Source: Ignavibacteriota bacterium
GTDB taxonomy: Bacteria > Bacteroidota > Ignavibacteria > CAWHAG01
Direction: 5' to 3'
Assembly (NCBI GenBank): GCA_963827285.1
Contig: CAWHAG010000001.1
Coordinates: 274,682-338,681 of the forward strand
Length of the DNA stretch: 64,000 nt
A program made the translations under genes and the position numbers. Below are positions 20,001 through 64,000 of the stretch, one piece after another (position 1 is the stretch's first letter; each line of letters begins with the position of its first letter). The notes under the pieces are model-generated. The model ran no database searches. It was not told the DNA's origin and saw only the letters and a program-made list of their open reading frames with translations.

Positions 20001-21840
20001 TGCTTAGAGTCATCACTTCCTGCTCGTGATGCTGATAGTTGTATCGCTTTACATTGTTATCCCAGTATTCTGTTCTATCCCACCACTGTCGGATGACCTT
20101 GACAGCGAAGTTTGCCATCACACCATTTTCCTTGAAATCTGCGATTCGTACCTTGAGTCGAACATCTTCCTTCGGCTTATAGACGTATTTATCCGTCTGC
20201 GAGGAAATATAGAACAGCCCTCGTGTCACCTCCACGCTCTTGGCACCTGAGATCGCCCTTCGGCTGTTATCTATGACATTCGCTTGAATGCGATAGACGT
20301 AGTCTTCTCTTGCCTTGACATCGGTATAGTAGGTGAGTTCGAACCTTCCGTTGTTGTCAACTTTCCCCGTGCCGCTATCGAGCAGTTCCTGACGATAGGT
20401 GTAATACTCTTCATCTTCTTCGTAATACCACGCATAATCTGTTCCCTTCCACCACGGACGCCAGTAGCGACTGCGATAGATATAATACTCAACGTCGGCG
20501 TTCGTCACAGGGCTACCAAAGTAATAGTCCGCCTTGACGGTCGCCTTGATAACATCACCTTTCGCGTAATGATCCTTGTCGAATGCAACTTCAACTTTGT
20601 ATTCTGGCTTCTTATATTCCTGGACTTCGAAGTTGTTAGTGTAAGTCCTATTCTCGACAACGGTTTGGATGTTGTAGAAACCCAGTGGTGGTTCCTCGGC
20701 AAGTCTCAGACTCCCATGGAAACTTCCAAACTCGTTTGTCTTCATTGAGTCTTTGTAGACGACACTGCCTCTCGAATCGGTGACGGTAATCTTCACAAGT
20801 TGATTTGGGAAATTCACCAACTGTCCTTCATCGTCTTTCTTTCTTACAATACCTTTGAAGAAGACATCCTGTCCTGGACGATACACGGGACGCTCGGTAT
20901 AGACGTACACATAATACCCCTGTTCTCTATCATAGGAGTAGTAATAAGGATCGGAGATGACAAGGTTTCCATCCTTGATACCCATTATCAGAATATTGCC
21001 GCCGCCGTATTCCCAGTCGAACTCTTCACCTTCCTCTTCAGTCGGAGTTGCTTGCTCTTTCTTTTCTATCGTTAGTGTATAGAGTCCTTTCTTGTCAGTT
21101 GTTCCTTTCCCAATCTTCTTATTCTTTTCATAGAAGGACAGTTCAAAGTCAGAAATCGGCTCACCGGTCTTCTTGTCCACGACATACGCAACCAATTTGG
21201 TTCCAGACCGTTTTGTGACCATCCCACACTTTGAGATCACCAGCATGGTGTAGGCAACTTTGTCAAGAGCTCTGCCCTCGACGAGATAGACACCAGCCTC
21301 TTTGATGTCTGCTCGCACCGTCTGGTAGTTCCACCATTCCTTTGTTTTGATAATCTGCTCCGTCCACTCCTTCACGATCTTGTAGCCCTCGAGTTCTTTG
21401 GGAACTTTCTGTTGCTCTTCAGCTGCCTTCTTTTCCTCCGCTTTTTCTATTCCTGCCATATCGCGGATGTTCACCCGGCTTTCGGCTTTCATGTAGGCGC
21501 GGGCAATCTGCCGAGCATCTCGCTGGATTTTGTTAGCAGCTTCACCGAAGATTTTGAAGATACTCGTCTCGTTGAGGCTTCTGAGATCTGGATGGTGCGG
21601 ATTCCTTTGCTTTTGGAAGAATTTGACAGGGTCGTCAATCTGATACACCCGAAGCTTAATGGTTCCTGAAAGATTATATGTCTCGAGTTGGAACGTGACC
21701 TCATCGCCGGGTGAGAACACTTTCGAGGTTGATAGGTAGAAGCTGTAATCTTTGTCCGCCACTCTCATGGCTGAAAGGAACAGGAGAGCAAACAGCGCAA
21801 GTGGCAGAACAACTCCTCTACGACTGATGATCTGTTTCAT
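17038..21840 (-). CDS. alpha-2-macroglobulin family protein (bacterial A2M, thioester-containing)
   Basis: 1600 aa, signal peptide; thioester motif YPYGCVEQT (CxEQ); size and architecture typical of bacterial A2M. Confidence 0.85.
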   Translation of the reverse strand: MKQIISRRGVVLPLALFALLFLSAMRVADKDYSFYLSTSKVFSPGDEVTFQLETYNLSGTIKLRVYQIDDPVKFFQKQRNPHHPDLRSLNETSIFKIFGEAANKIQRDARQIARAYMKAESRVNIRDMAGIEKAEEKKAAEEQQKVPKELEGYKIVKEWTEQIIKTKEWWNYQTVRADIKEAGVYLVEGRALDKVAYTMLVISKCGMVTKRSGTKLVAYVVDKKTGEPISDFELSFYEKNKKIGKGTTDKKGLYTLTIEKKEQATPTEEEGEEFDWEYGGGNILIMGIKDGNLVISDPYYYSYDREQGYYVYVYTERPVYRPGQDVFFKGIVRKKDDEGQLVNFPNQLVKITVTDSRGSVVYKDSMKTNEFGSFHGSLRLAEEPPLGFYNIQTVVENRTYTNNFEVQEYKKPEYKVEVAFDKDHYAKGDVIKATVKADYYFGSPVTNADVEYYIYRSRYWRPWWKGTDYAWYYEEDEEYYTYRQELLDSGTGKVDNNGRFELTYYTDVKAREDYVYRIQANVIDNSRRAISGAKSVEVTRGLFYISSQTDKYVYKPKEDVRLKVRIADFKENGVMANFAVKVIRQWWDRTEYWDNNVKRYNYQHHEQEVMTLSSATNRDGSGTVNFSVQENGYYRLVVSARDSRNNYIDETSYLYVTDERYYAYWGEESAKIQIIPDKDSYTAGETMHALIVLPTSGIDALVTVEGEDILDQNVERFDGVSKVIDVKLKDNYRPNIYLSVSTLFNDNFYNQSKRVLIIPQEKFLNVEILNDKQTYKPQDQGELTVKVTDENGRSVRNAEVSVGVVDESVYAISPERTTDIKKFFYNIRYNSVQTSSSLFFNFYGYSRGLRKEEYSDNKKAGEAAPLMATRSERERIALGDVKGQLFMEPATRREFKDMMLWQPTLVTDGNGIAKVQVKYPDNLTTWRATVRAMTRETEVGSEISRVIARKNLIVRMETPRFFMQKDELLIATIVHNYLSEDKQTKVSLSATNLNVEGTEKIITVPRNGEVKIDWKVRTSSPGEAKLLAKALTNEESDAMEVKVPVLPHGLQIAEAQVIDIDANREVKTATVNIPQAVDLSSAQFYVSISPSLASSILGALDDLIGYPYGCVEQTMSRFLPTVIVANTMRDLNVPLAEDVKKEIPKMVEKGLKRLYNFQHEDGGWGWWENDQSDPFMTAYVVYGLSLAKRANYEIPENVISKGIWNLKGHLESTVKLDPTTHAYVIYVMTFANEQEKVLEKSIIDGQLARFDTRGINNYARSLLALASYHQGDKATAMTLVNQLEAGTTSTGTAIYWTGKSWHYNWQDDAVETTAFALKALIEMKGNSDLIRKGVHWLLSQRHGFSWNSTRQTAIIIFALADYLKNSKELQPNYLTKVYVNDQMVMEKKVTQDDVFSKEARVKVNGRSLRQGENRIRVEKYGDGKLYFTSRVMYYSADENIQPKSAGFKVTREYFKLVKQRRSEEIVYVKQPFTGTVKSGDEIFVKLHIYSDDNYEYFMLEDPLPSGCEVIRKTDGYKIADEDGYSGGEYYGWRWWWEERDVRDEKVAFFARYFYSGEHAFTYIVRAQIPGNYHVMPSLASLMYYPEVRGNANEVSLDITE

Positions 21841-38569: not shown

Positions 38570-38884
38570 TTGGCACTTGCCGCTATGGGGGAGCTTTGGA
38601 TTCCGCCGGTTAATTCAAGCGACCTACGGGATAGAAGCAAGGGAGCGGAGAGGTTATTCATTTGTACTTTGTGTGTAGAGTTAAGCAGAGGTTGTCCCCA
38701 TGAGAGATGCAGCGCGAAATGTCATGCTGCATGATGTGAAGTATCGTCATTCGCGATGTTGCACGGGCTGATTCAGAATCGGGAACTGAGCCTGTCCAGG
38801 GACCATGGGAACGCCTTCAAACAGCTACAGGATTGTCGGCTTCAGATTCTTTTTGGGTTATTGACAGACAGGGGAAAGCCTTCC

Positions 38885-41830
38885 ATGAGGAGACATCTCT
38901 CACTTATCCTCCTACTGCTTGGCAGCATCAGCTACGGCTTCAGTCTTCTCATACATACTCGTCCACAGCACGAGACGAACGGCATTTCATCAAGGAGTCA
39001 TACGCTTCAGCAACCCTCTGACAGGAATTATTTGCCAGGTGTTGTCGTTGTAAAGTTCAAATCGGCAATCAGACATGCCCTCGGCAAGACCTCTGTACAA
39101 GAATCTTCCTTGAATTTCGTCTTCAACAAGTATTCGGTCTATGAGACAAGGCAGTTGTTTCCACAGCATGAACAGGCGCCACCGCGACCTGAACAGGTTG
39201 ACCTCTCTCGCATCTACATGATCCGCTACAACGCCAGCAACGACGCTGGAGAAGCAGCCAAGGATTTCGCGCGGGAGGAAGTGGTGGAATATGCTGAGCC
39301 GCATTACATTCACAGGGTGATGTTCACTCCTAACGATCCAATGTTCAACGTGAACCAATGGTATTTGAAGAAGATTCATGCCGAGCAAGCATGGGATATC
39401 ACGCAAGGTGATACGAGTGTGGTGATAGGGATCATTGATACTGGTGTGGATTGGGTCCACCCCGATCTTGCGGCAAACATCTGGATGAACCCTCGACCAG
39501 GGGGGAATCCCCAATATCCCAACGACATACGAGGATGGGACTTCGGCGGACTACATGGTACACCGGATAACGACCCAAACGAAGACCAACCCGATCACGG
39601 GACAGCAATTGCTGGGTTAGCATCTTCTGTTACGAATAATGGCATCGGTATCGCTGGTATGGGATTCAAATCCAAGATCATGGCAGTCAAAGTAACGCAA
39701 GATGATCAACGGAACGCTTCAGGTCCCTTGATACTTTACGGCTACGAAGGTATTGTCTATGCTGCTGATAATGGTGCGGCGATTATCAATTGCAGTTGGG
39801 GGCGACCCGGTAAGCAATCAACCTCTTCCAAGTATGAACAAGAGGTAATCAACTATGCTTACCAAAAAGATGCACTAGTTGTTGCAGCAGTCGGAAACGC
39901 TAATACTTCAACGAGGTACACCCCTGCTGCATACAACCATGTGCTCGCAGTTGCTGCTACTGATCCCAACGACCATAGATCCGTGTGGTCCTACGATTTC
40001 GCATCCAATTATGGACCATGGGTTGACGTCACGGCACCCGGTTCAGCTATGTTCAGCACATGGAAAGAGAATTCCTACACATATTCGTTGAATGGAACAT
40101 CCTTTGCGAGTGCTCTGGTTTCTGGCGTGGCAGCATTGGTGAAGTCGTTGCATCCTTCATGGACGCCTGACCAGGTCGCTGAGCAAGTGAGAGTTGCTGC
40201 CGACAAGATTGACTCGCTTAATCCCGGCTTCGCGGGTCAATTAGGCTCTGGCAGAGTAAACGCCTACCGTGCTGTGACGCAGCAGTCCCCGGCTGTCAGA
40301 GTTGTCTCTGTCATAATCAACGATTGGGCTGGTGGGAACAATGATGGGATTGCCGATCCTGGAGAAACAATCTCCATAGTGATGACATTTGAGAACTTCC
40401 TTGCTCCAGCATCAAATGCACAGGTGGAGATCACGACGACAGATCCATATGTGACCATGGTCAATGGCACTCTCATTACGCTCGGCACATTGGGCACGTT
40501 AGATTCAGTTAGCAATCGCATGCATCCAATGGTTGTGAAGATTTCCCCCTCGGTGCCAGAGAACTATGAAATCAGCTTCGCCGTCTCCGTTGTGGACAGT
40601 GACTACAGAGATGTCACGACCTTTGGAGTACCGGTCCAGCCGACGTTTAGGGACATGAACATCAACGACGTCGTTCTGACTATGACAAGTAGCGGGAGTC
40701 TCGGATTCAATGACTTCCCGGCAAACTTACAAGGGTCGGGCTTCACCTTCAAGAACATCTTTCAGAACCTTCTTCTTGAAGGTGCTCTCATGGTTGGGGT
40801 AAGTGGTTCGAAGGTGTCCAATGTTGCGCGAGATGAAACTGGAGTTTATCCAAACCGACATTTCGTAACGCTCCAGGACCTTCGAGTGGCTACCCCCGGG
40901 ACTGTTGCGGATCAAGAAGGCGTCGCGATTTTCAATGACGATGGTGCAGGAACAAACAAGATTGGGATCCGAGTAACACTGCGCAGCTACGCGTTTGTGA
41001 ATCCCCCTGATGAGAAGTACGTCATGTTGAAATACACACTTGAGAACACCGCAGACTCGACGATCACGAACTTACACGCGGGTCTGTTTTTCGATTGGGA
41101 TATCAATGGTGGCTCGAACAATGTCGCTGACTTTGACAGAGATCATCGCATGGGATATGTCTATGATACCGGAAGCGCAGTTGGGACGTACGTAGGTGTA
41201 ACGTTGGTGAGTCCGGACGGAATCTGTTACAGAGCAATTGATAATGCTGGGAAGAATGGGTGGGGCATTTACGATGGATTCAGCCTTGCTGAAAAATGGG
41301 AGGCGTTGAGTGGTGGGACATCGTCACATCTGACAGCAGGTCCAGGCGATGTCTCTCACGTCGTTTCGGCTGGTCCACTGGAGATCGCTCCGGGACAGAA
41401 GAAGGTGATCGGCTTTGCTGTGATGGGTGGAGATAGCTTGGCGGATTTGAGGAGCACGGCTGAGACAGCGATGGTGAAGTGGAAACAGATCCTTGATTCC
41501 AACGAAATGCCACCTGTGCCGTACGAGTTTGCATTGTATCAGAATTATCCGAATCCCTTCAATCCAACGACAACTATCAAGTATCAAGTTGCGAACTCAG
41601 GATTTGTTACTCTGAGAGTGTTCGATTTGCTTGGAAGGGAAGTCACCTCGTTGGTCCAGGAGTATCAAACTCCAGGACTGTATCAAGTCGCGTTCGATGC
41701 TCGAAGCTCGATGTCTAGTTCTCTTGCGAGTGGCGTGTATTTCTGTGATCTTCAGGTCTCAACCGCATCGGGTAAGGGCAACTACCACACTCAGTTTCGA
41801 GACGTGAAGAAAATGTTGATACTGAAATGA
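38885..41830 (+). CDS. S8 subtilisin-family serine peptidase with T9SS C-terminal sorting domain
   Basis: Catalytic triad contexts DTGVDWVHPDL, HGTAIAG, GTSFASALVSG; C-terminal LYQNYPNPFNPTTTIKY...GVYFCDL CTD; start at ATG with signal peptide. Confidence 0.85.
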   Translation: MRRHLSLILLLLGSISYGFSLLIHTRPQHETNGISSRSHTLQQPSDRNYLPGVVVVKFKSAIRHALGKTSVQESSLNFVFNKYSVYETRQLFPQHEQAPPRPEQVDLSRIYMIRYNASNDAGEAAKDFAREEVVEYAEPHYIHRVMFTPNDPMFNVNQWYLKKIHAEQAWDITQGDTSVVIGIIDTGVDWVHPDLAANIWMNPRPGGNPQYPNDIRGWDFGGLHGTPDNDPNEDQPDHGTAIAGLASSVTNNGIGIAGMGFKSKIMAVKVTQDDQRNASGPLILYGYEGIVYAADNGAAIINCSWGRPGKQSTSSKYEQEVINYAYQKDALVVAAVGNANTSTRYTPAAYNHVLAVAATDPNDHRSVWSYDFASNYGPWVDVTAPGSAMFSTWKENSYTYSLNGTSFASALVSGVAALVKSLHPSWTPDQVAEQVRVAADKIDSLNPGFAGQLGSGRVNAYRAVTQQSPAVRVVSVIINDWAGGNNDGIADPGETISIVMTFENFLAPASNAQVEITTTDPYVTMVNGTLITLGTLGTLDSVSNRMHPMVVKISPSVPENYEISFAVSVVDSDYRDVTTFGVPVQPTFRDMNINDVVLTMTSSGSLGFNDFPANLQGSGFTFKNIFQNLLLEGALMVGVSGSKVSNVARDETGVYPNRHFVTLQDLRVATPGTVADQEGVAIFNDDGAGTNKIGIRVTLRSYAFVNPPDEKYVMLKYTLENTADSTITNLHAGLFFDWDINGGSNNVADFDRDHRMGYVYDTGSAVGTYVGVTLVSPDGICYRAIDNAGKNGWGIYDGFSLAEKWEALSGGTSSHLTAGPGDVSHVVSAGPLEIAPGQKKVIGFAVMGGDSLADLRSTAETAMVKWKQILDSNEMPPVPYEFALYQNYPNPFNPTTTIKYQVANSGFVTLRVFDLLGREVTSLVQEYQTPGLYQVAFDARSSMSSSLASGVYFCDLQVSTASGKGNYHTQFRDVKKMLILK

Positions 41831-41966
41831 ATCAGTCGTGCTCTATTCACTCAAGGAGGGTGTGTGAATCTTGCTATCGTCTAATTCAAGATCTGACGGT
41901 GCCCTTTGGTCTAATTGCGCATTGGACTCTATCGCTTACATAATTAGGATTAGGAGAATCTTGGAA

Positions 41967-44867
41967 ATGAAAAACCGTTTGCTCATCGTTGTCTTACTTC
42001 TGGTTGGCATAAGCTATGGATTTGCACTGGCGACTCGTCCTCATTCCTCTAAGCAGACGGCAACAATAGCATCCTTTGGCAGCACACACAAGCAGTTGTC
42101 CGAGAAGAATTATCTTCCCAATGTTGTTGTCGTCAAATTCAAATCTGCGATCAGCCAGGCGCTTGGGAAAACGTCAGTTGATGAGCCTTCATTGAGTTTC
42201 ATCTTCAAGAAATTCTCTGTCAACAGCACGCAGCGGATGTTCCCTGACCACGATAGAGCGCCAACATCACCTGAGCGGGTTGATCTATCGAGATTCTACG
42301 AGATCCATTACTACGGCAACTATGATCCAGTGAATGTTGCGAGAGAGTTTGCCAAGGAAGCCGTGGTCGAATATGCCGAACCTTACTACATTCACAAATT
42401 AGCTTATGTCCCAAACGATCCGGCATACACAGGAGGTACTCAATGGTACTTGAAAACCATTCAAGCTGAACAGGCGTGGAATATCACCCAGGGGGATACC
42501 AGTGTTGTAATTGGTATTGTGGACACGGGCGTGGATTGGACTCACCCGGACCTTGCTGCTAATATCTGGGCAAATCCTAAACCCGGCTGGAATCCTAATT
42601 TTCCCAATGATGTTCGTGGATGGGATTTTGGCGGCTTGAACGGTACACCGGACAATGATCCGAATGAAGACCGTCCTGACCATGGAACAGGCGTTGCCGG
42701 TGTGGCATCTGCTGTGACGAACAACGGAATTGGCATCGCCGGCATTGGATTCAGATGCAGGATTATGGCGGTGAAAGTCGCTCAAGATGATCAAAGAGAT
42801 GTTTATGGCAATCCGTACATTGTCTATGGATTTCAGGGGATTGTCTATGCGGCTGATAATGGTGCCTCCGTAATCAACTGCAGTTGGGGTGGGGAAGGTT
42901 ATTCTCGCTATGAGCAAGAGGTCATCAACTACGCGTGTGAGAAAGGTGCCTTGGTGGTTGCCGCGGCTGGAAACGATAACACCTCAGTGATGTTCACACC
43001 TGCCGGGTATAACCACGTGCTGGCTGCTGCCGCAACCGATTCTCGTGACCGTAGAGCAGTCTGGCTCAGCGGTCAAGCGTCGAACTACGGAGAGTGGATT
43101 GATGTCTCTGCCCCCGGCTCAAGTATCTATATGACGTGGAAAGGCAATCAATATACGTACAACTCAGGAACCTCGTTTTCCAGTCCACTGACTGCAGGTG
43201 TCGCAGCATTGGTGAAATCATTGCATCCTGCCTGGACGCCAGATCAAATCGCCGAACAAGTCCGAGTCTCTGCCGACAAGATTGACTCGCTCAACACCGG
43301 ATACGCTGGGAAACTTGGCTTTGGGAGGATCAACGCCTATCGTGCTTTGACGGTTGTCTCTCCGGCAGTTAGGATTTCATCCTCCTCAGTGAGCGATTCT
43401 ATTGGCGGAAATAATGATGGCGTTGTTGATCCAGGAGAGACAATTCACATCACGCTCACACTGAAGAATCTGCTTGCCCCAACAACCAATGCGACGATTC
43501 GCTTCAGCTCGACAGATTCGAGTGTCAGGATTCTTGACGGAGATGTTTTCCAGGCAGGCAAGCTCTTGACACTGCAAGAGACTGATAACAAATCCCGTCC
43601 ACTTATTGTGCACGTTGCTAACACGGTGCCAGAAAATCACTATGTGAATTTCACGGCGAACATTTCCGATGGTGACTACAATGATGTCGCAACATTCAGA
43701 ATCCTCGTGCGACCGACGTTCGAGGATCACAACACTGATATCGTAACAATGACGGTTTCCAGCAAAGGAACGCTTGCATTCAATGATTATCCCACTAATC
43801 TTCAGGGAAGTGGCTTTACTTTCAAGGATAGATTTGAGAATCTTCTCTTTGAAGGCGCTTTGATGATAGGGATCAGCAGCACGCAAGTCTCAAACGCAGC
43901 GCGAGATGAAACCGGCAATCAGCAGTGCGATCATTTTGTCCCACTTCAATCCTTCAAGATAAGAAGTCCGGGCACTGTTGCTGATCAGGAAGGATTGTCA
44001 GTTCTGAATGATGACGGTGCGGGAAGAAGCACGATCGGCGTTCGCGTCACGCTGAAGAGTTACGCATTCAAGGACCCGCCTAACGATGGTTATGTCCTGC
44101 TGAGATATCTTCTCGAGAATACGACAGCCTCCAACATCTCAAACCTGTACGCTGGATTGTTTCTCGATTGGGATATCGGTCCAGACGGGGCAAACAATCA
44201 GGCTGACTACGATGGAGAACATAACTTGGGGTATGTCTATAATGTCAAGCGTACTGTGAAGACGTACTGCGGTGTAGCGTTGATGAGCAGCACCGCTTCT
44301 GTCGGTTATTGGGCGATTGATAATGACCAAAGCACTCCGGGTGCTCCATGGGGTATCTATGATGGATTCACCATCGCAGAAAAATGGCAAGCGCTGAGCA
44401 GCGGTGTCGGGAGGACTCCAAGCAGCGTTGGAGATGTCTCTCAAGTTCTCTCAACAGGACCACTGACGATCGCACCCGGGAAGACAGTCGAAGTTGGATT
44501 TGCTGTGTTAGGTGGAGACACCTTGTCTGATATGCAAGCCAACGTAGAGGTGGCGCTGAGAAAATGGAAGCAGATCACCCTTGAAGATATTAATACTGTT
44601 CCCGAGGAATTCGCACTTTATCAAAACTATCCAAATCCATTTAACCCGGCGACAACAATCATCTACGATTTGCCTTCGGACAACTTCGTGAGTCTGAAAG
44701 TGTATGATCTGCTCGGACGGGAAGTGGCAACATTGGTCAGCGAACGTCAGAAGGCCGGACGCTATATTAGAGAGTTCACGAGCAGCACGCTCTCGAGCGG
44801 TGTGTATTTCTATCGCCTGGAAGCAGGAGGATTTGGTGAGGCGAGGAAGATGTTGATCATCCGATAG
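41967..44867 (+). CDS. S8 subtilisin-family serine peptidase, tandem paralog, with T9SS C-terminal sorting domain
   Basis: Colinear with the upstream S8 gene (DTGVDWTHPDL, HGTGVAG, GTSFSSPLTAG); C-terminal LYQNYPNPFNPATTIIY...GVYFYRL. Confidence 0.85.
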   Translation: MKNRLLIVVLLLVGISYGFALATRPHSSKQTATIASFGSTHKQLSEKNYLPNVVVVKFKSAISQALGKTSVDEPSLSFIFKKFSVNSTQRMFPDHDRAPTSPERVDLSRFYEIHYYGNYDPVNVAREFAKEAVVEYAEPYYIHKLAYVPNDPAYTGGTQWYLKTIQAEQAWNITQGDTSVVIGIVDTGVDWTHPDLAANIWANPKPGWNPNFPNDVRGWDFGGLNGTPDNDPNEDRPDHGTGVAGVASAVTNNGIGIAGIGFRCRIMAVKVAQDDQRDVYGNPYIVYGFQGIVYAADNGASVINCSWGGEGYSRYEQEVINYACEKGALVVAAAGNDNTSVMFTPAGYNHVLAAAATDSRDRRAVWLSGQASNYGEWIDVSAPGSSIYMTWKGNQYTYNSGTSFSSPLTAGVAALVKSLHPAWTPDQIAEQVRVSADKIDSLNTGYAGKLGFGRINAYRALTVVSPAVRISSSSVSDSIGGNNDGVVDPGETIHITLTLKNLLAPTTNATIRFSSTDSSVRILDGDVFQAGKLLTLQETDNKSRPLIVHVANTVPENHYVNFTANISDGDYNDVATFRILVRPTFEDHNTDIVTMTVSSKGTLAFNDYPTNLQGSGFTFKDRFENLLFEGALMIGISSTQVSNAARDETGNQQCDHFVPLQSFKIRSPGTVADQEGLSVLNDDGAGRSTIGVRVTLKSYAFKDPPNDGYVLLRYLLENTTASNISNLYAGLFLDWDIGPDGANNQADYDGEHNLGYVYNVKRTVKTYCGVALMSSTASVGYWAIDNDQSTPGAPWGIYDGFTIAEKWQALSSGVGRTPSSVGDVSQVLSTGPLTIAPGKTVEVGFAVLGGDTLSDMQANVEVALRKWKQITLEDINTVPEEFALYQNYPNPFNPATTIIYDLPSDNFVSLKVYDLLGREVATLVSERQKAGRYIREFTSSTLSSGVYFYRLEAGGFGEARKMLIIR

Positions 44868-50779: not shown

Positions 50780-50930
50780 GAACTCCCATCTTAGATGGGG
50801 ACTTTCTCGTGAGTTCTTTGAAACATAGTGTGCATACCAAGTCAATTTAGCAGAGTTTCACACCTCGTCCTTCCGCCGCAAGTGGAAGGACAAGATTGAA
50901 CTCGAAGTTGTCTTTGAAAGAATACAACGG

Positions 50931-52466
<1,536 letters not shown>

Positions 52467-52566
52467 AGTTCTCTCTCGACGGTGTCGAGGGTAAACATCC
52501 TTTCCTGCTAAATCTGATTTTACTATGCACACTATTTTATTGAAGTCAGCTTGGCTACACTCACAA

Positions 52567-52640
<74 letters not shown>

Positions 52641-52671
52641 CACAGGTGTGTGTTCCCAACCGAGAGACTAC

Positions 52672-52744
52672 GGGGCTATAGCTCAATTGGGAGAGCGCCT
52701 GCCTTGCACGCAGGAGGTTATCGGTTCGATCCCGATTAGCTCCA
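52672..52744 (+). tRNA. tRNA-Ala (anticodon TGC)
   Basis: GGGGCTATAGCTCAATTGGGAGAGCGCCTGCCTTGCACGCAGGAGG...; G3-U70 identity pair present. Confidence 0.9.
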
Positions 52745-52805
52745 CTGGGAGAGCGTGGCGCCGTTAGGCGCCAAGGTAGTCGGTTCAAGCGCGATTAGCT
52801 CCACA
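52745..52805 (+). other. tRNA-Ala-derived fragment (D-loop and 3' acceptor retained, anticodon arm replaced by GGCGCC hairpin)
   Basis: CTGGGAGAGCG...GGTTCAAGCGCGATTAGCTCCAC parallels the tRNA-Ala 3' two-thirds immediately upstream; no 5' acceptor strand. Confidence 0.5.
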
Positions 52806-53186
52806 AAGAGTGATTGGTTAGGGAAGCAATATTTGTCATATCAGATTTGGTTGCGCTGATAGGTGTTATCATTGCGGTGCGGGATACTTACACCTTGCGC
52901 AAGGAGAAAAAAGCAAAAAGGGTTTAGTTTGATATAAGAAATAGGGTAGGCGATTCTCGCTTATCATCCAAAAGTGTTCTTTGACAATTGAGAAGAGTTC
53001 ATCAGCTTCGAGGTAAGTAGTTGTGGCGCATTTGGCGCCATAAATTCTGCCCATGGTGCCACGAACAAACATCTTGAAGTTTGATGACTGCAAAGAAAGA
53101 CCTAGCAGTATTTCCGTAGTATTTGTTGATGCACCGAGTCCGATTCCCAATCGGACCAGACTATCTGTGTATCAATAAAGATTTTT

Positions 53187-56267
<3,081 letters not shown>

Positions 56268-56348
56268 TAATCTTTATTGATATCAGATGGTGGTGCATCA
56301 ACAAATGGTTCGGAAGTAACTCTTCTCGATTGTCTAAACGTTAGAATT

Positions 56349-56466
56349 CCCTGGCGACAATATCACGGGTGTAACACCTCTTCCCATTCCGAACAGAGCA
56401 GTTAAGCCCCGTAGAGCCGATGGTACTGCATGGGCAACTGTGTGGGAGAGTAGGTCGTTGCCAGGG
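56349..56466 (+). rRNA. rrf: 5S ribosomal RNA
   Basis: CCCTGGCGAC...CCGAACAGAGCAGTTAAGCCCCGTAGAGCCGATGGTACTG...GTTGCCAGGG; followed by a T-run. Confidence 0.9.
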
Positions 56467-56515
56467 ATTCTCTTTTTCCACCAACCCACGGAATTCTCAA
56501 AGGAGGGAAGGTCAC

Positions 56516-57094
56516 ATGAAACGTCTCTCTGTGGTTGTTGCCTTCTTAGCGATTCCCCTGCTGTATCCTAACCTGCACGCTCAAGAGAATATCTCTACGA
56601 CGCAGTCAATCTCTCTGCAACCAATCTTCTGGATTGAGAGCGTGCTTCCAAGAGAATGGATAGGGGTTTCAGGTCAGTATGAGTTGGGTGTTGCAGTGGA
56701 TAGGAGCTTAACGTGGAGGATGTTCTGGCTTCGTATGGCACGGATGGCATTCGGGGATTTTACAGGACTCGAAGCAGTTGGCATATCCGCCGAGTATCGT
56801 ATTTATCTAGAGGACGATCTTCAGGGATGGCACCTCGGTCCCTTTGTGGAAGGCTCTCGGTGCGGGTGGCGCGCATACGGTGGAGGTGTCTTTGGCAATT
56901 ACGCCAAGAATGTATTTGATTTTGGCATACAGGCTGGGCACAAGTGGATCTCAAAACACCACGTCTCCTTTGATATTTCTGTGAGAGCAGCATGGTTCAG
57001 TCATTCGGTGGAAAGAGGCTATGCCACATTTCTGCCTAGAGGTGATTTCGAACCGAACGGACACCTGCTCGTGAGCATCGGATACGCTTTCTAG
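56516..57094 (+). CDS. hypothetical small outer-membrane beta-barrel-like protein
   Basis: ATG preceded by AAGGAGGGAAGG RBS; signal peptide MKRLSVVVAFLAIPLL...AQ; ends GYAF; about 192 aa. Confidence 0.6.
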   Translation: MKRLSVVVAFLAIPLLYPNLHAQENISTTQSISLQPIFWIESVLPREWIGVSGQYELGVAVDRSLTWRMFWLRMARMAFGDFTGLEAVGISAEYRIYLEDDLQGWHLGPFVEGSRCGWRAYGGGVFGNYAKNVFDFGIQAGHKWISKHHVSFDISVRAAWFSHSVERGYATFLPRGDFEPNGHLLVSIGYAF

Positions 57095-57875
57095 CTGATC
57101 CGTAGCTGGCAGTCGCGAGTATGTAAATCATATTGCTTAGACTTGACAATCGTGTTCTTACCACGCCGGAAAGGAACAGGATATCACATGCGAAATCCCT
57201 TCATAGAATTCCACCCTTGTCTCTCACCTTCATAGAAGAGAGTCTCCTTGTCGAACTGATCTAGCAGTCGAATCAATCATGAAACATCAAGGTCAAGTTC
57301 CAACCTCGCAGTGATCTCACTTCTCACGCTCGCTCATCTTATCCTCGAGAGTCTCTCCACATCAATCCATCTATTCTCAGAGCAATCAGCCTCATTCCAA
57401 AACTCAGTTTCCAAGAATGAATTCCATTGTGAATGCTGGTGTCATTCCAAGGAGGTCCATCTGCAAATCTTACCAATGACACCGAAATATTTACCTGGGA
57501 AATCTGAACGAAAAAGAATTCGCCAAAGAAATCCAAACGGTGCTTAGTTTTTGCTAAATCCGGGGGATCAGATATCAACTTGAAAGCGAAGAGAAAATGG
57601 TACGATGATTGCATACGATAAATTAGTGGAACTCTCTCTAGTGGTGGACTTCCCATCAAGATTTGTCGGAATCAAAAGGATGAACATTTAGTTCTACGAT
57701 TCAAAGGGAAAGGCCAGTTCGTGGGTCCTCTGAATCAAGTCCCCAGGGTGAGCTTTCGCTTCGCATGACATGATGCACAACACCACTTGAAACCAGTCAT
57801 CTACAGAGCGGCCAAGAACTTCATTGACAAATCGTCTCGGCGTTCTTCCATCCATCAAGGTTGGGACGTGACACA

Positions 57876-60800
57876 ATGCTGAAACAACTCCTTCGTTTCA
57901 TAGCCAGTCTCGAACTCATACTTATCGTTGGCGCGACGCTGAATGCTGGATCTCTGATCCCCCCTCGGCACTTGGGTGAACTGTCAAGTCTAAGCGATGC
58001 AGCACTATTGGGGAGAGCGAGAGCATCTCGCGTTGTGAAACATGGTTCACTTTTGTTCACCCGGACATCTTTCGAGGTGTTGGATGTGATGCGGGGATCT
58101 GTGCGGAAGGGTGATAGCGTTTGTGTTGAGACTCCCGGAGGGGCGGGGGATGGTGTGGCTTGGTTGGTGCTCGGTTCGCCGCGATTCTTGGAGGGGCAAG
58201 TTTATCTCCTATTCCTAAATCGCAAATCCCCTGATGTGTGGCAGCCGCGTATGCTCTCGTATGGATTGCTGCAGCGCGTTAGAGGTCGCGATGGCACAAA
58301 TCTTCTTGTTCCACTTGCTGAGAGAGACGGACTTCAGCCCTTTCCACGTCCAGATGGAGTTGTCCCCGAGCCCGTTGGTATCTACCGAGAGAAGATGCTC
58401 CTCAGCCATCTGACACAAGTCGTGCGAGGAGAAATCCGGTGGAACTCGAAGGCTGTACTAGCACCCAGCGAGGTGATACCTACAGAAGCGTTGCAGGTGT
58501 TGGCTCCACCTTCTCAGTGTGCGTTCATGAATTATGGAGGTCTGAACATAAGGTGGAACGTGTTCGATGGTGGCGGACAGGTCACTGTCAGTGCTAATGC
58601 GACTGGAGACAACTCTCTTCCTGGAGGTGGCTTCGCAGAGGTGCAAGGGGCTGTCTCGGATTGGATGAGCGTTCCTAACACCACCATCAACCTCGGCTAC
58701 GGGGGTGCCATGAGCTACGCCATGACCTGTACCGGAAATCAGGACACGCCCGCCTCTGGTGTCAACATAGTAATGTTCAACGACCCATGCTCGGATATTC
58801 CTGATCTTTCAGGCTGCACTGGGACGCTGGCATTCGGTGGACCATGGTTCGGCGGCACACACACGTTTGATGGCGCTACGTGGTACTCTATTCAGAGCTG
58901 CTTTGTCGTGGTGAACAACGGTGTAGGTTGTCTGGGTAGCGCCAACTACCGGCGAATGATAGCTCACGAGTTGGGCCACGGTTTGGGCTTTGGTCACTTC
59001 AGCGACCCCAATGCTCTCATGTATGCCTACTGCTGCAACTCTATCAGCTCGACGGACATAACGTGTGCACAATACCTTTATCCCGTGGTGCTTTCAGCAC
59101 CTTCACTCTTGTCTCCATCAGATGGTGGGACAGATGTTTCAACGAGCCCGACGTTGAGTTGGAACGCTTCCAGCGGTGCGACTTCGTATCGGTTGCAGGT
59201 TTCGACCAGTTCAGGCTTCGCGACAACAGTGTATGATCAAAGCGGAATTACGGGTACTTCTCAGGCTGTGACAGGTCTTTCAAACAATACGATGTATTAC
59301 TGGCGAGCGAACGCGACTAACGCTGGAGGGACAAGCGCTTGGTCCAGCATCTGGAGTTTCACTACAGCGGGTGGCGTGACTCCGTCACCTCCAGTGCTTG
59401 CCTCCCCCGCAAATGGTGCAACAAGTGTTTCAACGAGTCCGACATTAAGCTGGAACGCCGCGAGTGGCGCGACATCATATCGGTTGCAGGTGTCAACAAA
59501 TTCAAGTTTCTCGTCAACGGTGTTTGATCAAAGTGAAATCACAAGCACTTCTCAGGTGGTGACAGGTCTATCGAACAATACGATGTATTACTGGCGAGTG
59601 AACGCCACTAATACTGCAGGGACAAGTGTCCGGTCTAGTGTATGGAACTTCACAACGATTGCTGGCGTACCGTCAGCACCAACGCTTGCTTCACCTTCCA
59701 ATGGTGCAACAGGAGTATCAACAAGTCCGACCTTGAGTTGGAATGCTTCGAGTGGAGCGACATCCTATCGCCTGCAGGTCTCTACAAGTTTAAGTTTTTC
59801 GACAACAGTGTTTGATCAGAGTGAGACAACTGGAACATCGCGGCTCGTGAGTGGGCTATCGAATAACACCATCTACTACTGGCGAGTGAACGCAACTAAT
59901 GCTGGAGGGACAAGCGGTTGGTCTGGCATGTGGAGTTTCACAACGACGGGTGGGGTCGCTCCCTCAACACCAATGCTTGCCTCGCCGGCAAATGGTGCGA
60001 CTGGAGTCTCAACAAGTCCGGCATTGAGTTGGAACACTTCTAGCGGTGCGGCTTCGTATCGGCTGCAGGTTTCCATGACTTCTGGTTTCGCGACAACAGT
60101 GATAGACTCCGGTGGAATAGTGGGAACGTCAGTCTTGTTGAGCAGTCTTGTCAACAACACTACCTACTTCTGGCGTGTAAATGCGACAAACGCTGGAGGG
60201 ACAAGCGATTGGTCTAGTGTGTGGAATTTCACAACGACTGTGGCAGCTCCCTCGCCGCCAACTCTTGCCTCTCCGTCAAATGGTGCAACTGGAGTCTCAA
60301 CAGGTCCGACATTGAGTTGGAACACTTCTAGCGGTGCGGCTTCGTATCGGCTGCAGGTTTCCATGACTTCTGGTTTCGCGACAACAGTGATAGACTCCGG
60401 TGGAATAGTGGGAACGTCAGTCTTGTTGAGCAGTCTTGTCAACAACACTACCTACTTCTGGCGTGTAAATGCGACAAACGCTGGAGGGACAAGCGATTGG
60501 TCTAGTGTGTGGAATTTCACAACGACTGTGGCAGCTCCCTCGCCGCCAACTCTTGCCTCTCCGTCAAATGGTGCAACTGGAGTCTCAACAGGTCCAACAT
60601 TGACTTGGAACGCTTCCAGCTCTGCAACTTCGTATCGGCTGCAGGTTTCCATCACTCCTGATTTCGTGACGACAGTGATAGACTCTGGTGGAATGGCAGG
60701 AACATCAGTCATGCTGAGTAGTCTTGTCAACAACACCACTTACTACTGGAGAGTGAGTGCAACAAACGTTGGAGGAACAGGCGCCTGGTCAAGCGTCTGG

Positions 60801-62585
60801 AGCCTCACAACCATTGTGGGACCCCCATCACCGCCTCTACTCGTTTCTCCTTCGGACGGCGCGATCGGTGTTTCGACGAGTGAGACGCTAGTCTGGAATG
60901 GCTCAGCGAATGCTGCATCATATCGCCTGCAGGTTTCCATCAATCCAGATTTCTCGGAGATCTCGTTCGATCAAAGCAGCATCGCGAGTACTTCGCAGGT
61001 CGTAACTGGACTTTCAAACAACTCAGCATATTACTGGAAGGTGAATGCGGTGAATGCTGGTGGAACTAGTATCTGGTCAAACGTCTGGTCTTTCACAACC
61101 ATGCTTGCTCCACCAATTCTCGCCTCACCTTCAGATGGTGCGACGGGTGTTTCAACTGATCCAACACTGACCTGGAGCAGATCCAGCGGTGCGACATCGT
61201 GTTGGATACAAATCTCCACCAGCGCAGACTTCTCTTCTCTCATCATCAACCAGAGTGGAATCCCGCTTCCGCTGTACAAGGCGAACAGTCTATCCAGTAA
61301 CACAACGTATCATTGGAGGGTTAATGCAGGAAATGCAGGAAGAACAAGTGTCTGGTCGAGCGTCTGGAGTTTCACGACGGTTGTAGCGGCTCCATCAATC
61401 CCGAGCCTTGCATCTCCATCGAATGGTGCTGCAGGTGTCTCCACAAATCCCACCTTGGATTGGAACGCCTCATCAGGTGCAACATCATATCGGCTGCAAG
61501 TTTCCACCAGTTCTCATTTTGAAACGACGGCCACTGACACGAGCGGGATTCCGGGAACGTCAGTCCGGACCAATGGCTTAGCCAACCATAGGACATACTA
61601 TTGGAGACTGAGCGCGACGAACGTAGGGGGAACGAGTGATTGGTCATCCGTGTGGGATTTTATGACCACCAACAGGGCGCCCAAACTCATTCTCGGTGCT
61701 TACGACACCACGATCAATCAAGGTGAACTTCTAAGCTTCAGCGTTGCAGCGGCAGACTCGGATTACGACCCATTGGCGTTCACGGGGTTCAATCTCCCAC
61801 CAGGAGCTACGCTTGATTCACTCAGTCCCACAAGTCGGGTGTTCGACTGGACACCCACGTACACCCAAGAGGGAGTCTTCAGCAACATCAAGATCGTTGT
61901 CTCCGATGGTGATTCATCAGACAACGCACAGTTTACGATCACTATCAGGAAAGTGAATAGAGCTCCAGCACGGTTCGCTCTTGTATCTCCGACATCAGGA
62001 GATACAGTCGCACTGACGTTTCCATCCAAACCGATTGTCTTTCGTTGGCACAAGTCAATAGATCCGGACGTTTCAGATACAGTCAGGTACTCGCTGCGTG
62101 TAACGGGTTCAGGATTCGATGACATGGTGGCTAATATCAAGGATACGACCGTGTTGCTCGATATCATGTCCCGCCTCAAGAACTCAAGCATTTACTTGTG
62201 GTATGTGGTTGCTACCGACGGACAGCTTGCATCAAACTCGGATTCTGCCACCTTCAGAACATCCTCAAGAGTCACGGGCATGCCTGACAACGTCAAGAAG
62301 ATGCCGACAGAATTTGCGTTACATCAAAATTATCCCAATCCGTTCAATCCATCTACAGAGGTTGTTTTCGCCGTTCCAAACCGGTGTCGTGTGAAGATAG
62401 ACATCTTCAGCGTTCTGGGCAACGTAGTATGTGAAATGACAGATGCAGAGTACCCGGCGGGTGTTTATCGTGTGCGATGGAACGGGCAAAGCACATCAGG
62501 AGCTGCGGTTTCAAGCGGTGTCTATTTCTATCGGATGATAACTGAGACTGGAGTGTTCACTAAAAGAATGGTTTTGCTGCGATGA
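57876..62585 (+). CDS. giant secreted metzincin-like zinc metalloprotease with nine tandem Fn3-like repeats, cadherin/Ig-like domains and T9SS C-terminal sorting domain
   Basis: HELGHGLGFGH (HExxHxxGxxH) followed by ALMY Met-turn; nine units of about 96 aa (SP.NGATGVSTSPTLSWNASSGATSYRLQVS...YYWRVNATNAGGTS.WSS.W.FTT); C-terminal FALHQNYPNPFNPSTEVVF...GVYFYRM CTD. Track ORF starts at a TTG (57861). Confidence 0.8.
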   Translation: MLKQLLRFIASLELILIVGATLNAGSLIPPRHLGELSSLSDAALLGRARASRVVKHGSLLFTRTSFEVLDVMRGSVRKGDSVCVETPGGAGDGVAWLVLGSPRFLEGQVYLLFLNRKSPDVWQPRMLSYGLLQRVRGRDGTNLLVPLAERDGLQPFPRPDGVVPEPVGIYREKMLLSHLTQVVRGEIRWNSKAVLAPSEVIPTEALQVLAPPSQCAFMNYGGLNIRWNVFDGGGQVTVSANATGDNSLPGGGFAEVQGAVSDWMSVPNTTINLGYGGAMSYAMTCTGNQDTPASGVNIVMFNDPCSDIPDLSGCTGTLAFGGPWFGGTHTFDGATWYSIQSCFVVVNNGVGCLGSANYRRMIAHELGHGLGFGHFSDPNALMYAYCCNSISSTDITCAQYLYPVVLSAPSLLSPSDGGTDVSTSPTLSWNASSGATSYRLQVSTSSGFATTVYDQSGITGTSQAVTGLSNNTMYYWRANATNAGGTSAWSSIWSFTTAGGVTPSPPVLASPANGATSVSTSPTLSWNAASGATSYRLQVSTNSSFSSTVFDQSEITSTSQVVTGLSNNTMYYWRVNATNTAGTSVRSSVWNFTTIAGVPSAPTLASPSNGATGVSTSPTLSWNASSGATSYRLQVSTSLSFSTTVFDQSETTGTSRLVSGLSNNTIYYWRVNATNAGGTSGWSGMWSFTTTGGVAPSTPMLASPANGATGVSTSPALSWNTSSGAASYRLQVSMTSGFATTVIDSGGIVGTSVLLSSLVNNTTYFWRVNATNAGGTSDWSSVWNFTTTVAAPSPPTLASPSNGATGVSTGPTLSWNTSSGAASYRLQVSMTSGFATTVIDSGGIVGTSVLLSSLVNNTTYFWRVNATNAGGTSDWSSVWNFTTTVAAPSPPTLASPSNGATGVSTGPTLTWNASSSATSYRLQVSITPDFVTTVIDSGGMAGTSVMLSSLVNNTTYYWRVSATNVGGTGAWSSVWSLTTIVGPPSPPLLVSPSDGAIGVSTSETLVWNGSANAASYRLQVSINPDFSEISFDQSSIASTSQVVTGLSNNSAYYWKVNAVNAGGTSIWSNVWSFTTMLAPPILASPSDGATGVSTDPTLTWSRSSGATSCWIQISTSADFSSLIINQSGIPLPLYKANSLSSNTTYHWRVNAGNAGRTSVWSSVWSFTTVVAAPSIPSLASPSNGAAGVSTNPTLDWNASSGATSYRLQVSTSSHFETTATDTSGIPGTSVRTNGLANHRTYYWRLSATNVGGTSDWSSVWDFMTTNRAPKLILGAYDTTINQGELLSFSVAAADSDYDPLAFTGFNLPPGATLDSLSPTSRVFDWTPTYTQEGVFSNIKIVVSDGDSSDNAQFTITIRKVNRAPARFALVSPTSGDTVALTFPSKPIVFRWHKSIDPDVSDTVRYSLRVTGSGFDDMVANIKDTTVLLDIMSRLKNSSIYLWYVVATDGQLASNSDSATFRTSSRVTGMPDNVKKMPTEFALHQNYPNPFNPSTEVVFAVPNRCRVKIDIFSVLGNVVCEMTDAEYPAGVYRVRWNGQSTSGAAVSSGVYFYRMITETGVFTKRMVLLR
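59110..61670 (+). repeat. intragenic tandem repeat, nine units of about 288 bp (coding Fn3-like modules)
   Basis: Periodic antisense ORFs (59876-60160, 60164-60448, 60452-60739) and near-identical protein units; units 4 and 5 (about 60030-60300 and 60318-60588) look identical over roughly 270 bp by eye. Confidence 0.8.
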
Positions 62586-63009: not shown

Positions 63010-64000
63010 ATGAAAACTCCGGTCGCCGTTCTGTTAGCTCTTCTGTTGCTTTATTCAGTTGCAGTTGGTCAATACTGTAATCTCTCCAATAATGCTGGAC
63101 AGTCGGTTGAGCCACAACTTGCCGTGGACAAATCGGGCGGTATTCATGTTGTGTGGATGGATAACACCCCTGGCAACCGGGAAATTTTCTACGCACGCGG
63201 TTCCGGGGTAGGATGGAGTTCGTCATACAACATTTCGGCAACACCCACCGATTCAAAACATCCGCGAATGGTTGTAGACTCGCTTGGCTGGGTTGATGTA
63301 GTCTGGGAAGAACATCTTCCGTCCAAGGTTGATATCATCCACGCCAGATTTAACATCCTTGCTAATACTCCTATCAAGAAAGATACACTTACTGCGTCAC
63401 TTGATAGCTCGTCCTACAGTCCCGACATCGCATTCGTCCTGAACAAACCATCAGTTTGTTGGATTTCTAAGGATGGAAATCTGGGCAAACTATACTGGTC
63501 GTACTTTGAGCCTATGCAACAGGTTTGGTTTGCCAGGGCACTGGATGATTCCGTTGACATCAGCCTTTGTCGCATCACTTCGGGGAATTATGGCTCGGTC
63601 ATTTATCTGAAGATGAAAAAGAACTGGGATGGTCTATGTTACGTGTTTGGCATTTATACTCGCTGTCCGGAGTTCGGAGTGATTGCTGACACTGTGCACG
63701 ATCATTATTACCAGATCTTCAATTCGCGAGCAAACTTCGAAGTGGTGACCGAACCATCTGCAACCCGCTCAGAGAAACTTAATGCGTGTGGGCAGCTCAT
63801 TTCGTCAGACGTGTTGCACCTCATTTTTCATGGACCGCATTTTACGGCGTGCGCATGCGACTATGATATTAGCTACATCAAGCATGATGGGACTGCTTGG
63901 GGAAACTGGAAGGTTCTTGCTCACGACGATCGAGAATTCATTCAGTGGGGAAAAGTAAGCCTCGCTTCGTTGAACAGCAGGTTCATTGTTGCGGCTTATG
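63010..64000 (+). CDS. hypothetical secreted protein, 3'-partial (runs off window)
   Basis: ATG at 63010, signal peptide MKTPVAVLLALLLLYSVAVGQ, open frame to the window end; not in the ORF track, presumably because no stop is reached. Confidence 0.5.
   Translation, partial: MKTPVAVLLALLLLYSVAVGQYCNLSNNAGQSVEPQLAVDKSGGIHVVWMDNTPGNREIFYARGSGVGWSSSYNISATPTDSKHPRMVVDSLGWVDVVWEEHLPSKVDIIHARFNILANTPIKKDTLTASLDSSSYSPDIAFVLNKPSVCWISKDGNLGKLYWSYFEPMQQVWFARALDDSVDISLCRITSGNYGSVIYLKMKKNWDGLCYVFGIYTRCPEFGVIADTVHDHYYQIFNSRANFEVVTEPSATRSEKLNACGQLISSDVLHLIFHGPHFTACACDYDISYIKHDGTAWGNWKVLAHDDREFIQWGKVSLASLNSRFIVAAY

Follow-up and report, generated by a model that had tools for sequence, protein, structure and literature searches.

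What kind of protein is encoded by the very large, repeat-rich gene at positions 57876–62585 of the 64,000-nucleotide stretch of contig CAWHAG010000001.1 analysed here (the window), and how did two of its repeats come to share a long tract of identical DNA? The joint reading favored here, with a probability of about 0.8, is that of a secreted and probably surface-attached matrixin-type zinc endopeptidase on a stalk of nine fibronectin type III (Fn3)-like units, the array having undergone one recent tandem duplication of 288 bp. The gene is real and ordinary in type: a large metzincin presumably exported through a type IX secretion system (T9SS) and carried on an Fn3-like stalk. The original prediction, made from the DNA alone, had called a metzincin of 1570 aa in which nine tandem Fn3-like modules are combined with cadherin/Ig-like domains and a T9SS C-terminal domain (CTD), and profile matches bear these domain calls out. 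In the list of open reading frames (ORFs) the gene begins at a TTG (57861..62585, 1574 aa). The ATG at 57876 lines up with the starts of homologues in the alignment, and the product is therefore 1569 aa plus the stop codon; the predicted coordinates were right, and the figure of 1570 aa counts the stop codon. The protein consists of a signal peptide, a 410-aa head, nine Fn3-like units of ~96 aa (U1 to U9), an Ig-like He_PIG domain, a tenth Fn3-like domain recognised only weakly and a T9SS sorting domain of type A, in that order.

57876..62585, + strand: whole gene, ATG to TGA, for the multidomain secreted matrixin-like metalloprotease (ORF list; start aligned to homologues)
57876..57947, + strand: Sec signal peptide, aa 1-24, predicted cleavage after LNA at the family AxA site (hydrophobic N-terminus; cleavage inferred)
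57948..58355, + strand: N-terminal oligonucleotide/oligosaccharide-binding (OB)-fold domain in the profragment position, aa ~25-160, with a predicted fold like that of netrin (NTR) modules and tissue inhibitors of metalloproteinases (TIMPs) (predicted structure)
58356..58487, + strand: linker with a confident helix, aa 161-204, between N-terminal and catalytic domains (AlphaFold2 secondary structure, helix at aa 172-183)
58488..59093, + strand: matrixin-like metzincin catalytic domain, aa ~205-406
58965..58997, + strand: zinc-binding motif HELGHGLGFGH, aa 364-374 (translated sequence)
59019..59021, + strand: Met-turn methionine M382 in ALMYA (translated sequence)
59094..61682, + strand: nine Fn3-like units, 93-97 aa each (unit hidden Markov model, HMM; Pfam fn3 and Ig_Rha78A_N)
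59094-60539, + strand: U1 59094-59384, U2 59385-59672, U3 59673-59963, U4 59964-60251, U5 60252-60539
60540-61682, + strand: U6 60540-60827, U7 60828-61106, U8 61107-61394, U9 61395-61682
61698..61946, + strand: Ig-like He_PIG / Big_9 domain (PF05345, 37.2 bits, cut-off 24; PF17963, 25.3 bits, cut-off 23.6)
61980..62237, + strand: tenth Fn3-like domain, divergent and weakly matched (11.9 bits against the unit HMM; E 9e-6 for the domain in this protein)
62331..62573, + strand: T9SS type A C-terminal sorting domain (TIGR04183, 37.5 bits, cut-off 23; PF18962, 29.6 bits, cut-off 27)

The catalytic head

The HExxHxxGxxH motif and Met-turn that led to the protease call are intact on re-inspection (HELGHGLGFGH and M382), with the zinc-binding histidines present. 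Across an alignment of 76 family members the motif is strongly conserved (H364 in 76/76, E365 in 73/76, H368 in 75/76, G371 in 72/76 and H374 in 75/76), and position 382 is a methionine in 74 of the 76. The Pfam family Matrixin (PF00413, for MEROPS M10A) matches at 31.1 bits against a cut-off of 24, and a profile of the family compared with all PDB sequences retrieves matrix metalloproteinases (MMPs) only (MMP-7, -1, -12, -9, -8 and -3; best E 1.5e-8), with alignments confined to three elements, namely the active-site helix, Met-turn and final helix. The AlphaFold2 model of the first 410 aa, computed from 76 sequences, has a mean predicted local distance difference test score (pLDDT) of 89.8 and a two-domain predicted template modelling score (pTM) of 0.54. 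It contains the β-sheet, active-site helix and C-terminal helix of the metzincin catalytic fold, and its best fold matches are MMPs. The nearest relatives by sequence and by fold are MMPs and not other metzincins. The motifs, the Matrixin score, the profile matches and the model together indicate that the head is a matrixin-like metzincin, with presumed peptidase activity. The cysteine-switch propeptide motif of animal MMPs, PRCGxPD, is not present in the translated sequence, and the N-terminal region is predicted to be an OB-fold domain instead.

The N-terminal domain

Neither Pfam nor NCBIfam recognises the first ~160 residues, conserved though they are family-wide, and no Pfam family is found for aa 1-295 at E up to 0.1. 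The TIMP/NTR-like domain predicted in this region was not recognised in the original prediction. When aa 21-190 are modelled alone, the pLDDT is 94.8 and the pTM 0.91, and Foldseek places TIMP-2 first (E 1.7e-4), followed by agrin NtA, the NTR domain of PCOLCE, C3, N-TIMP-3 and TIMP-1. In two independent structure searches the top matches of aa 25-160 are TIMP/NTR modules only (N-TIMP-1, -2 and -3, PCOLCE NTR, complement C345C and agrin NtA), and the predicted domain has an NTR-type OB fold. This TIMP/NTR-shaped reading comes from predicted structures only, and when a profile of 27 such domains is run against the PDB, no chain of a TIMP or NTR module is retrieved up to an E of 10. Over aa 25-160 the family alignment has neither Cys1/CxC nor any conserved cysteine, and the domain offers no conserved Cys, Asp or His able to act as a classical switch residue. 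The TIMP/NTR module is MEROPS I35 and Pfam PF00965 / PF01759; membership of the TIMP family proper is rejected by its defining sequence features, since there is no CxC, no disulfide and no profile match.

The start of the domain coincides with the predicted signal-peptidase site, where a hydrophobic N-terminus seen by eye is followed by the family AxA site (A at -3 in 51/76 and at -1 in 67/76 aligned sequences). The mature N-terminus would read GSLIPP here, and the family pattern, [T/A/S][S/T][I/V][V/A]PPx[N/D]LGELA, includes some of the best-conserved residues of the domain, its two prolines being kept in 68/76 and 62/76. The first part of this pattern, [T/A/S][S/T][I/V][V/A]PP, recalls the CTCVPP of TIMP-1. 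The domain is also widespread: a HMMER search of 1.84 billion representatives (E up to 0.001, clusters at 50% identity) shows that at least 376 clusters carry it, and among the 150 matches listed it nearly always begins within the first 60 residues of the protein.

TIMPs block MMPs through the free α-amino group of their first residue, which binds the MMP zinc (PMC9890683). The typical layout of a T9SS protease has a signal peptide, an N-terminal profragment that confers latency, a catalytic domain, an extension and a CTD (PMC4404884). The profragment position, the predicted TIMP fold, the start at the mature N-terminus and the conserved N-terminal peptide thus favor a cis-acting TIMP-like latency domain, which is the most attractive reading of the predicted structure. 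In that case the domain may be a built-in TIMP, an NTR-fold module fused in cis whose free conserved N-terminus would insert in the active site and chelate the zinc, so that the enzyme would be kept quiet until export and processing. As a specific mechanism this is tentative and somewhat doubtful. The domain may instead have a generic prodomain or foldase role, or may bind a substrate or partner as other NTR modules do.

Should the built-in TIMP reading be true, the MMP–TIMP pairing, which is regarded as an animal invention, would have a widespread bacterial counterpart, either ancestral or convergent. No account of a cis fusion of a TIMP-shaped and an MMP-like domain was found in the literature searched, the coverage of which is incomplete. 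The authors who described a Listeria metzincin and TIMP-like lipoprotein pair in 2021 state that they came across no prior report of a TIMP-like protein in bacteria (PMC8235301), TIMPs go unmentioned in a survey of bacterial MMPs from 2025 (PMC12587646), and karilysin is described as the sole MMP-like enzyme outside mammals to have been studied structurally and functionally (PMC9890683). Bacterial MMP-like enzymes are numerous and barely characterised. A large unannotated bacterial family in which a TIMP-shaped domain precedes an MMP-like one would offer a direct experimental handle on the latency of secreted proteases and on the origin of the NTR/TIMP fold and of MMP–TIMP regulation. The TIMP-shaped head is for these reasons a more interesting lead than the duplicated repeat.

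The stalk and the route of export

Each of the nine units scores 146-159 bits against its own unit HMM. In Pfam the array matches fn3 (PF00041) with 120.7 bits over seven stretches and Ig_Rha78A_N (PF25788) with 138.5 bits over six; no other ORF in the window carries such a unit. The tenth Fn3-like domain has no Pfam match. The T9SS tail is recognised by TIGR04183, and Por_Secre_tail (PF18962) passes its cut-off on the isolated tail and falls to 22.1 bits, below the cut-off, in the context of the whole protein.

The host appears to belong to the Bacteroidota/Ignavibacteria-like part of the Fibrobacterota–Chlorobiota–Bacteroidota (FCB) group, where type IX secretion is expected. This placement follows from the Ffh protein of the window, which has 72-76% identity with proteins labelled Ignavibacteria, Ignavibacteriae, Kryptonia, Chlorobiaceae and Bacteroidota, and from the presence in the window of two CTD-bearing subtilases, an alpha-2-macroglobulin and a DUF5686 outer-membrane protein. 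In such a host the Sec signal peptide would take the protease to the periplasm and the type A sorting domain would take it through the T9SS. Sorting domains of this type are as a rule removed, and the cargo becomes tethered to the outer membrane. With the anchor at the C-terminus and the protease at the N-terminus, the nine units, the Ig-like domain and the tenth Fn3-like domain would form a stalk of ~30-40 nm, at an assumed ~3.5 nm per unit, which would hold the catalytic head at a distance from the cell or aid its binding to a polymeric substrate.

The array is ancient. As the original prediction had noted, units other than 4 and 5 differ at many positions: pairs outside the identical tract share 55-84% of their DNA. 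By DNA identity, U1, U2 and U3 form one group (74.6-76.0%) and U4, U5 and U6 another, and U7, U8 and U9 stand singly, each with 55-65% identity to all others. Among the old units, DNA identity is 55-76%, the proportion of synonymous differences (pS) is 0.56-0.87, which is saturated, and the ratio of nonsynonymous to synonymous divergence (dN/dS) is 0.08-0.22. The split between U4 and U6 is intermediate (80.6% identity, dS about 0.5), and the event that gave U5 left one difference in 292 bp. The program TRF picks up only the six youngest units (period 288, 5.8 copies, 80% matches). The closest relative, a short-read contig from Logan SRR29366193 (L003), is 91% identical to positions 56437-59658 of the window, and runs from the 5S gene into unit 2, where it stops. 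Its U1 and U2 are collinear and orthologous with those described here, which implies that the array predates the separation of the two lineages. The saturated synonymous divergence, the low dN/dS and this collinearity show an array that is ancient, under purifying selection and not homogenised, in which the U5 event is very recent. Near-identity of most units, as expected from concerted evolution, is not seen; one 286-bp tract only is identical.

Origin of the identical tract

A k-mer self-comparison of the gene finds one long exact direct repeat, of 286 bp at an offset of 288.

60022..60307, + strand: first copy of the exact 286-bp direct repeat, covering U4 positions 59-288 and U5 positions 1-56
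60310..60595, + strand: second copy, U5 positions 59-288 plus U6 positions 1-56
60304..60309, + strand: recombination junction in U5, GTCC microhomology followed by GA, where U4 has GG and U6 has AA

The original prediction had described units 4 and 5 as identical over ~270 bp. The exact tract is real, at 286 bp, and is out of register with the domain borders, so that U4 and U5 compared in register are 96.5% identical in DNA and 94.8% in protein. At the 81-84% identity of neighboring units, 286 consecutive matches would be expected by chance with p about 1e-22 to 1e-27. U5 is a hybrid. It equals U6 over unit positions 1-56 and U4 over positions 59-288, with no mismatch in either part, and at the 56 sites where U4 and U6 differ it reads the U6 base nine times, then U4 once and U6 once, and then U4 at the remaining 45. 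At the switch U4 and U6 share only GTCC, their longest shared run being 25 bp at unit positions 89-113.

The hybrid nature of U5, the length of the tract, which is one period, and the microhomology at the switch are best explained by a single recent in-frame tandem duplication of 288 bp, which took the array from eight units to nine. Unequal exchange or replication slippage at the 4-bp microhomology GTCC would have duplicated 288 bp in frame (96 codons); if U6 of one copy exchanged unequally with U4 of the other, the product would be U4, a U5 with the head of U6 and the tail of U4, and U6. Such a duplication predicts an identity tract of 292 bp (288 plus the 4 of the microhomology), which one later base change would reduce to the observed 286 bp. 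The natural candidate is position 60021 in U4: codon 60020-60022 is GCA (Ala) in U4 and encodes Thr in the other eight units, which would explain the one discordant base. A change at position 57 in U6 or in U5 would explain the junction pattern equally well. Of the three explanations offered by the original prediction, namely very recent duplication, gene conversion and an assembly fault, the first is thus favored and the other two fit less well. The duplicated repeat is a clean and datable case of a surface-protein stalk growing one domain at a time. This is textbook biology, and its importance is chiefly that of a warning on assembled copy numbers.

Evidence against and alternative explanations

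Several observations weigh against the reading of a secreted, active protease on a nine-unit stalk. The Matrixin match is modest and limited to positions 52-158 of the 159 in the profile. Within the window no gene of the T9SS machinery was identified. The secretion route, the stalk role and the latency role are inferences. The remaining contrary points, which concern the relative L003 and the assembly, bear on particular alternatives.

The alternative that survives best, and which is still improbable, holds that the protein is mainly an adhesin or binding protein, with the Fn3 array as its functional part and a protease head that is inactive or dispensable. In L003, at positions 2500-2620, which match ~58965-58997 of the window, a 1-nt deletion and a cluster of substitutions fall in the zinc motif and split the ORF, and the motif would read HELGDGLGFGH (His to Asp) if the frame were restored; the Fn3 units of L003 stay open in the shifted frame. 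The gene of that lineage may be a pseudogene or otherwise inactivated, the protease may be dispensable there, or the contig may be in error. The purifying selection on the Fn3 units would suit an adhesin, and NCBIfam has a class of T9SS-dependent inactivated metalloproteases (NF052323), which the protein matches at 22.8 bits against a cut-off of 600 and in the tail only. Against this, the zinc ligands, the catalytic Glu and the Met-turn are all intact in the window and are kept in at least 73 of the 76 family members, and in the high-confidence model of the head the metzincin fold is complete.

Quite improbable is an assembly artefact, in which the array really numbers eight units, or another count, and the additional 288 bp stem from a wrongly traversed repeat loop or a faulty consensus. 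Mis-assembly classically arises at identical tandem copies, the L003 contig breaks within the array, and the count of nine units is that of the assembled contig. The protease is also missing from a large public protein collection, both by exact look-up of the ATG and TTG starts and by a homology search with the C-terminal 300 aa, which found no self match and a best identity of 61%; ten neighboring proteins tested from the window are all present in the same collection, on one contig of 1,630,525 bp. A k-mer loop, however, can switch only where the two copies have k-1 or more bases in common, and at the observed switch U4 and U6 have just GTCC. With a pure loop U5 would moreover match U4 at every position past the junction, whereas position 58 differs, and the duplication is exactly in frame. 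Furthermore, the 1.63-Mb contig runs through an rRNA operon of 5.5 kb, and the short-read contig of the relative breaks at both the operon and the array, which suggests that the window was assembled from long reads that would span the 2.6-kb array. The doubt of the original prediction about the true number of repeats is weakened accordingly.

Gene conversion, in which nine units pre-existed and the U4/U5 tract overwrote the matching part of U5/U6 or the reverse, is very improbable: it is common between tandem paralogous units and would suit a tract of 286 bp rather than at least 288 bp with a mosaic base at its junction, but a single tract would have to begin where its donor ends and be one period long to within 4 bp, a coincidence that is automatic under duplication, two abutting conversions are even less parsimonious, and the 2-bp shortfall is accounted for by one substitution (the Ala codon of U4).

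Relatives of the head

Genome and metagenome contigs scanned with the 410-aa head yield relatives of 55-65% identity that are ~700-830 aa long and have two or three weak PKD- or Fn3-like domains; no second gene with nine units was found in these scans. Homologues of the head in other lineages typically measure 600-830 aa and carry either two or three domains of the PKD, TIG or Fn3-like kind or an SLH or T9SS tail; a few reach 1250-1740 aa with other tails. On these comparisons the nine-unit array is specific to the present lineage. A recent transfer of the head from Acidobacteriota was considered, as the best named matches are Thermoanaerobaculia, and was not adopted: the third-position GC content (GC3) of the head, 0.554, lies within the 0.475-0.619 of host genes, and a 54% relative carries a CHU_C-associated Ig domain of the Bacteroidota type. 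Two distant members of the family (P0349 and P0367, ~1730 aa) have an unusual tail for a protease, in which the TIMP-like and matrixin head is followed by galactose-binding-like domains and a C-terminal FGE-sulfatase (formylglycine-generating-enzyme-like) domain.

Comparison with known systems

The KLIKK proteases of Tannerella forsythia, among them the MMP-like, T9SS-secreted karilysin, resemble the present protein in having a bacterial matrixin-type domain and the same order of signal peptide, profragment, catalytic domain, extension and CTD (PMC4404884), and the best structural matches of the head are MMPs. The profragment of karilysin, however, has 14 residues (PMC4404884), in contrast to the ~135-residue predicted OB-fold domain plus linker found here, and, compared by description, the present protein differs from the KLIKK proteases in its nine Fn3-like units and Ig-like domains and in a classical type A CTD that is not of the KLIKK type. 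Cytophagalysin CPL1 of Cytophaga (137 kDa) is a large metzincin from the same superphylum with eight Ig-like domains, the last of which is like a T9SS CTD (PMC11674741). It belongs to the pappalysin family and not to the matrixins, its Ig-like domains form intercalated pairs rather than a tandem array of one unit, and no TIMP-like domain has been described for it.

The N-terminal domain resembles TIMPs and NTR modules in its predicted fold over aa 25-160 and in beginning at the predicted mature N-terminus, as TIMPs do (PMC9890683). It differs in the lack of sequence-level similarity, including Cys1, CxC and conserved cysteines, and in being fused in cis to the protease, whereas TIMPs are separate inhibitors. 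The closest bacterial parallels are the Mtz/Tim pair of Listeria and the karilysin/potempin A pair, in which a metzincin also has an OB-fold or TIMP-like partner (PMC8235301, PMC9890683). Those partners are separate lipoproteins acting in trans, and potempin A uses a loop-based 'bilobal' mechanism (PMC9890683); the domain described here belongs to the protease's own polypeptide.

Bacterial surface proteins with length-variable repeat arrays have tandem β-sandwich units of ~90-100 aa between a functional head and a cell-surface anchor, with near-identical DNA repeats and a copy number that shifts through unequal recombination. The present array differs from them in that only one pair of copies is identical and the other units show saturated synonymous divergence, and it is not obviously hypervariable.

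Genomic neighborhood

The gene follows directly on a complete rRNA operon and a 192-aa gene, and the other features of the window that bear on its setting are as follows.

17038-21840, - strand: alpha-2-macroglobulin
38756-41830 and 41871-44867, + strand: tandem S8 subtilases of ~1000 aa, each with a T9SS sorting tail
50924-56466, + strand: complete rRNA operon, 16S-tRNA-tRNA-23S-5S
50924-52460, 53186-56268 and 56350-56466, + strand: 16S, 23S and 5S rRNA genes of this operon, which also has two tRNAs
56516-57094, + strand: 192-aa signal-peptide-bearing protein, C-terminal YAF
~63010-64000, + strand: further signal-peptide-bearing protein (MKTPVAVLLALLLLYSVAVGQ...), ~420 bp past the protease gene and running off the end of the window

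Scans for promoters and terminators gave no more sites than shuffled sequence. The 192-aa protein has no Pfam or NCBIfam match and looks like a small outer-membrane β-barrel by its sequence; the longest ORF version of its gene overlaps the 5S rRNA gene. It is kept upstream of the protease in the 91% relative and is not found beside distant homologues. The two subtilases and the alpha-2-macroglobulin show a probable protease-rich secretome in this stretch, and the rRNA operon is useful for the placement of the organism.

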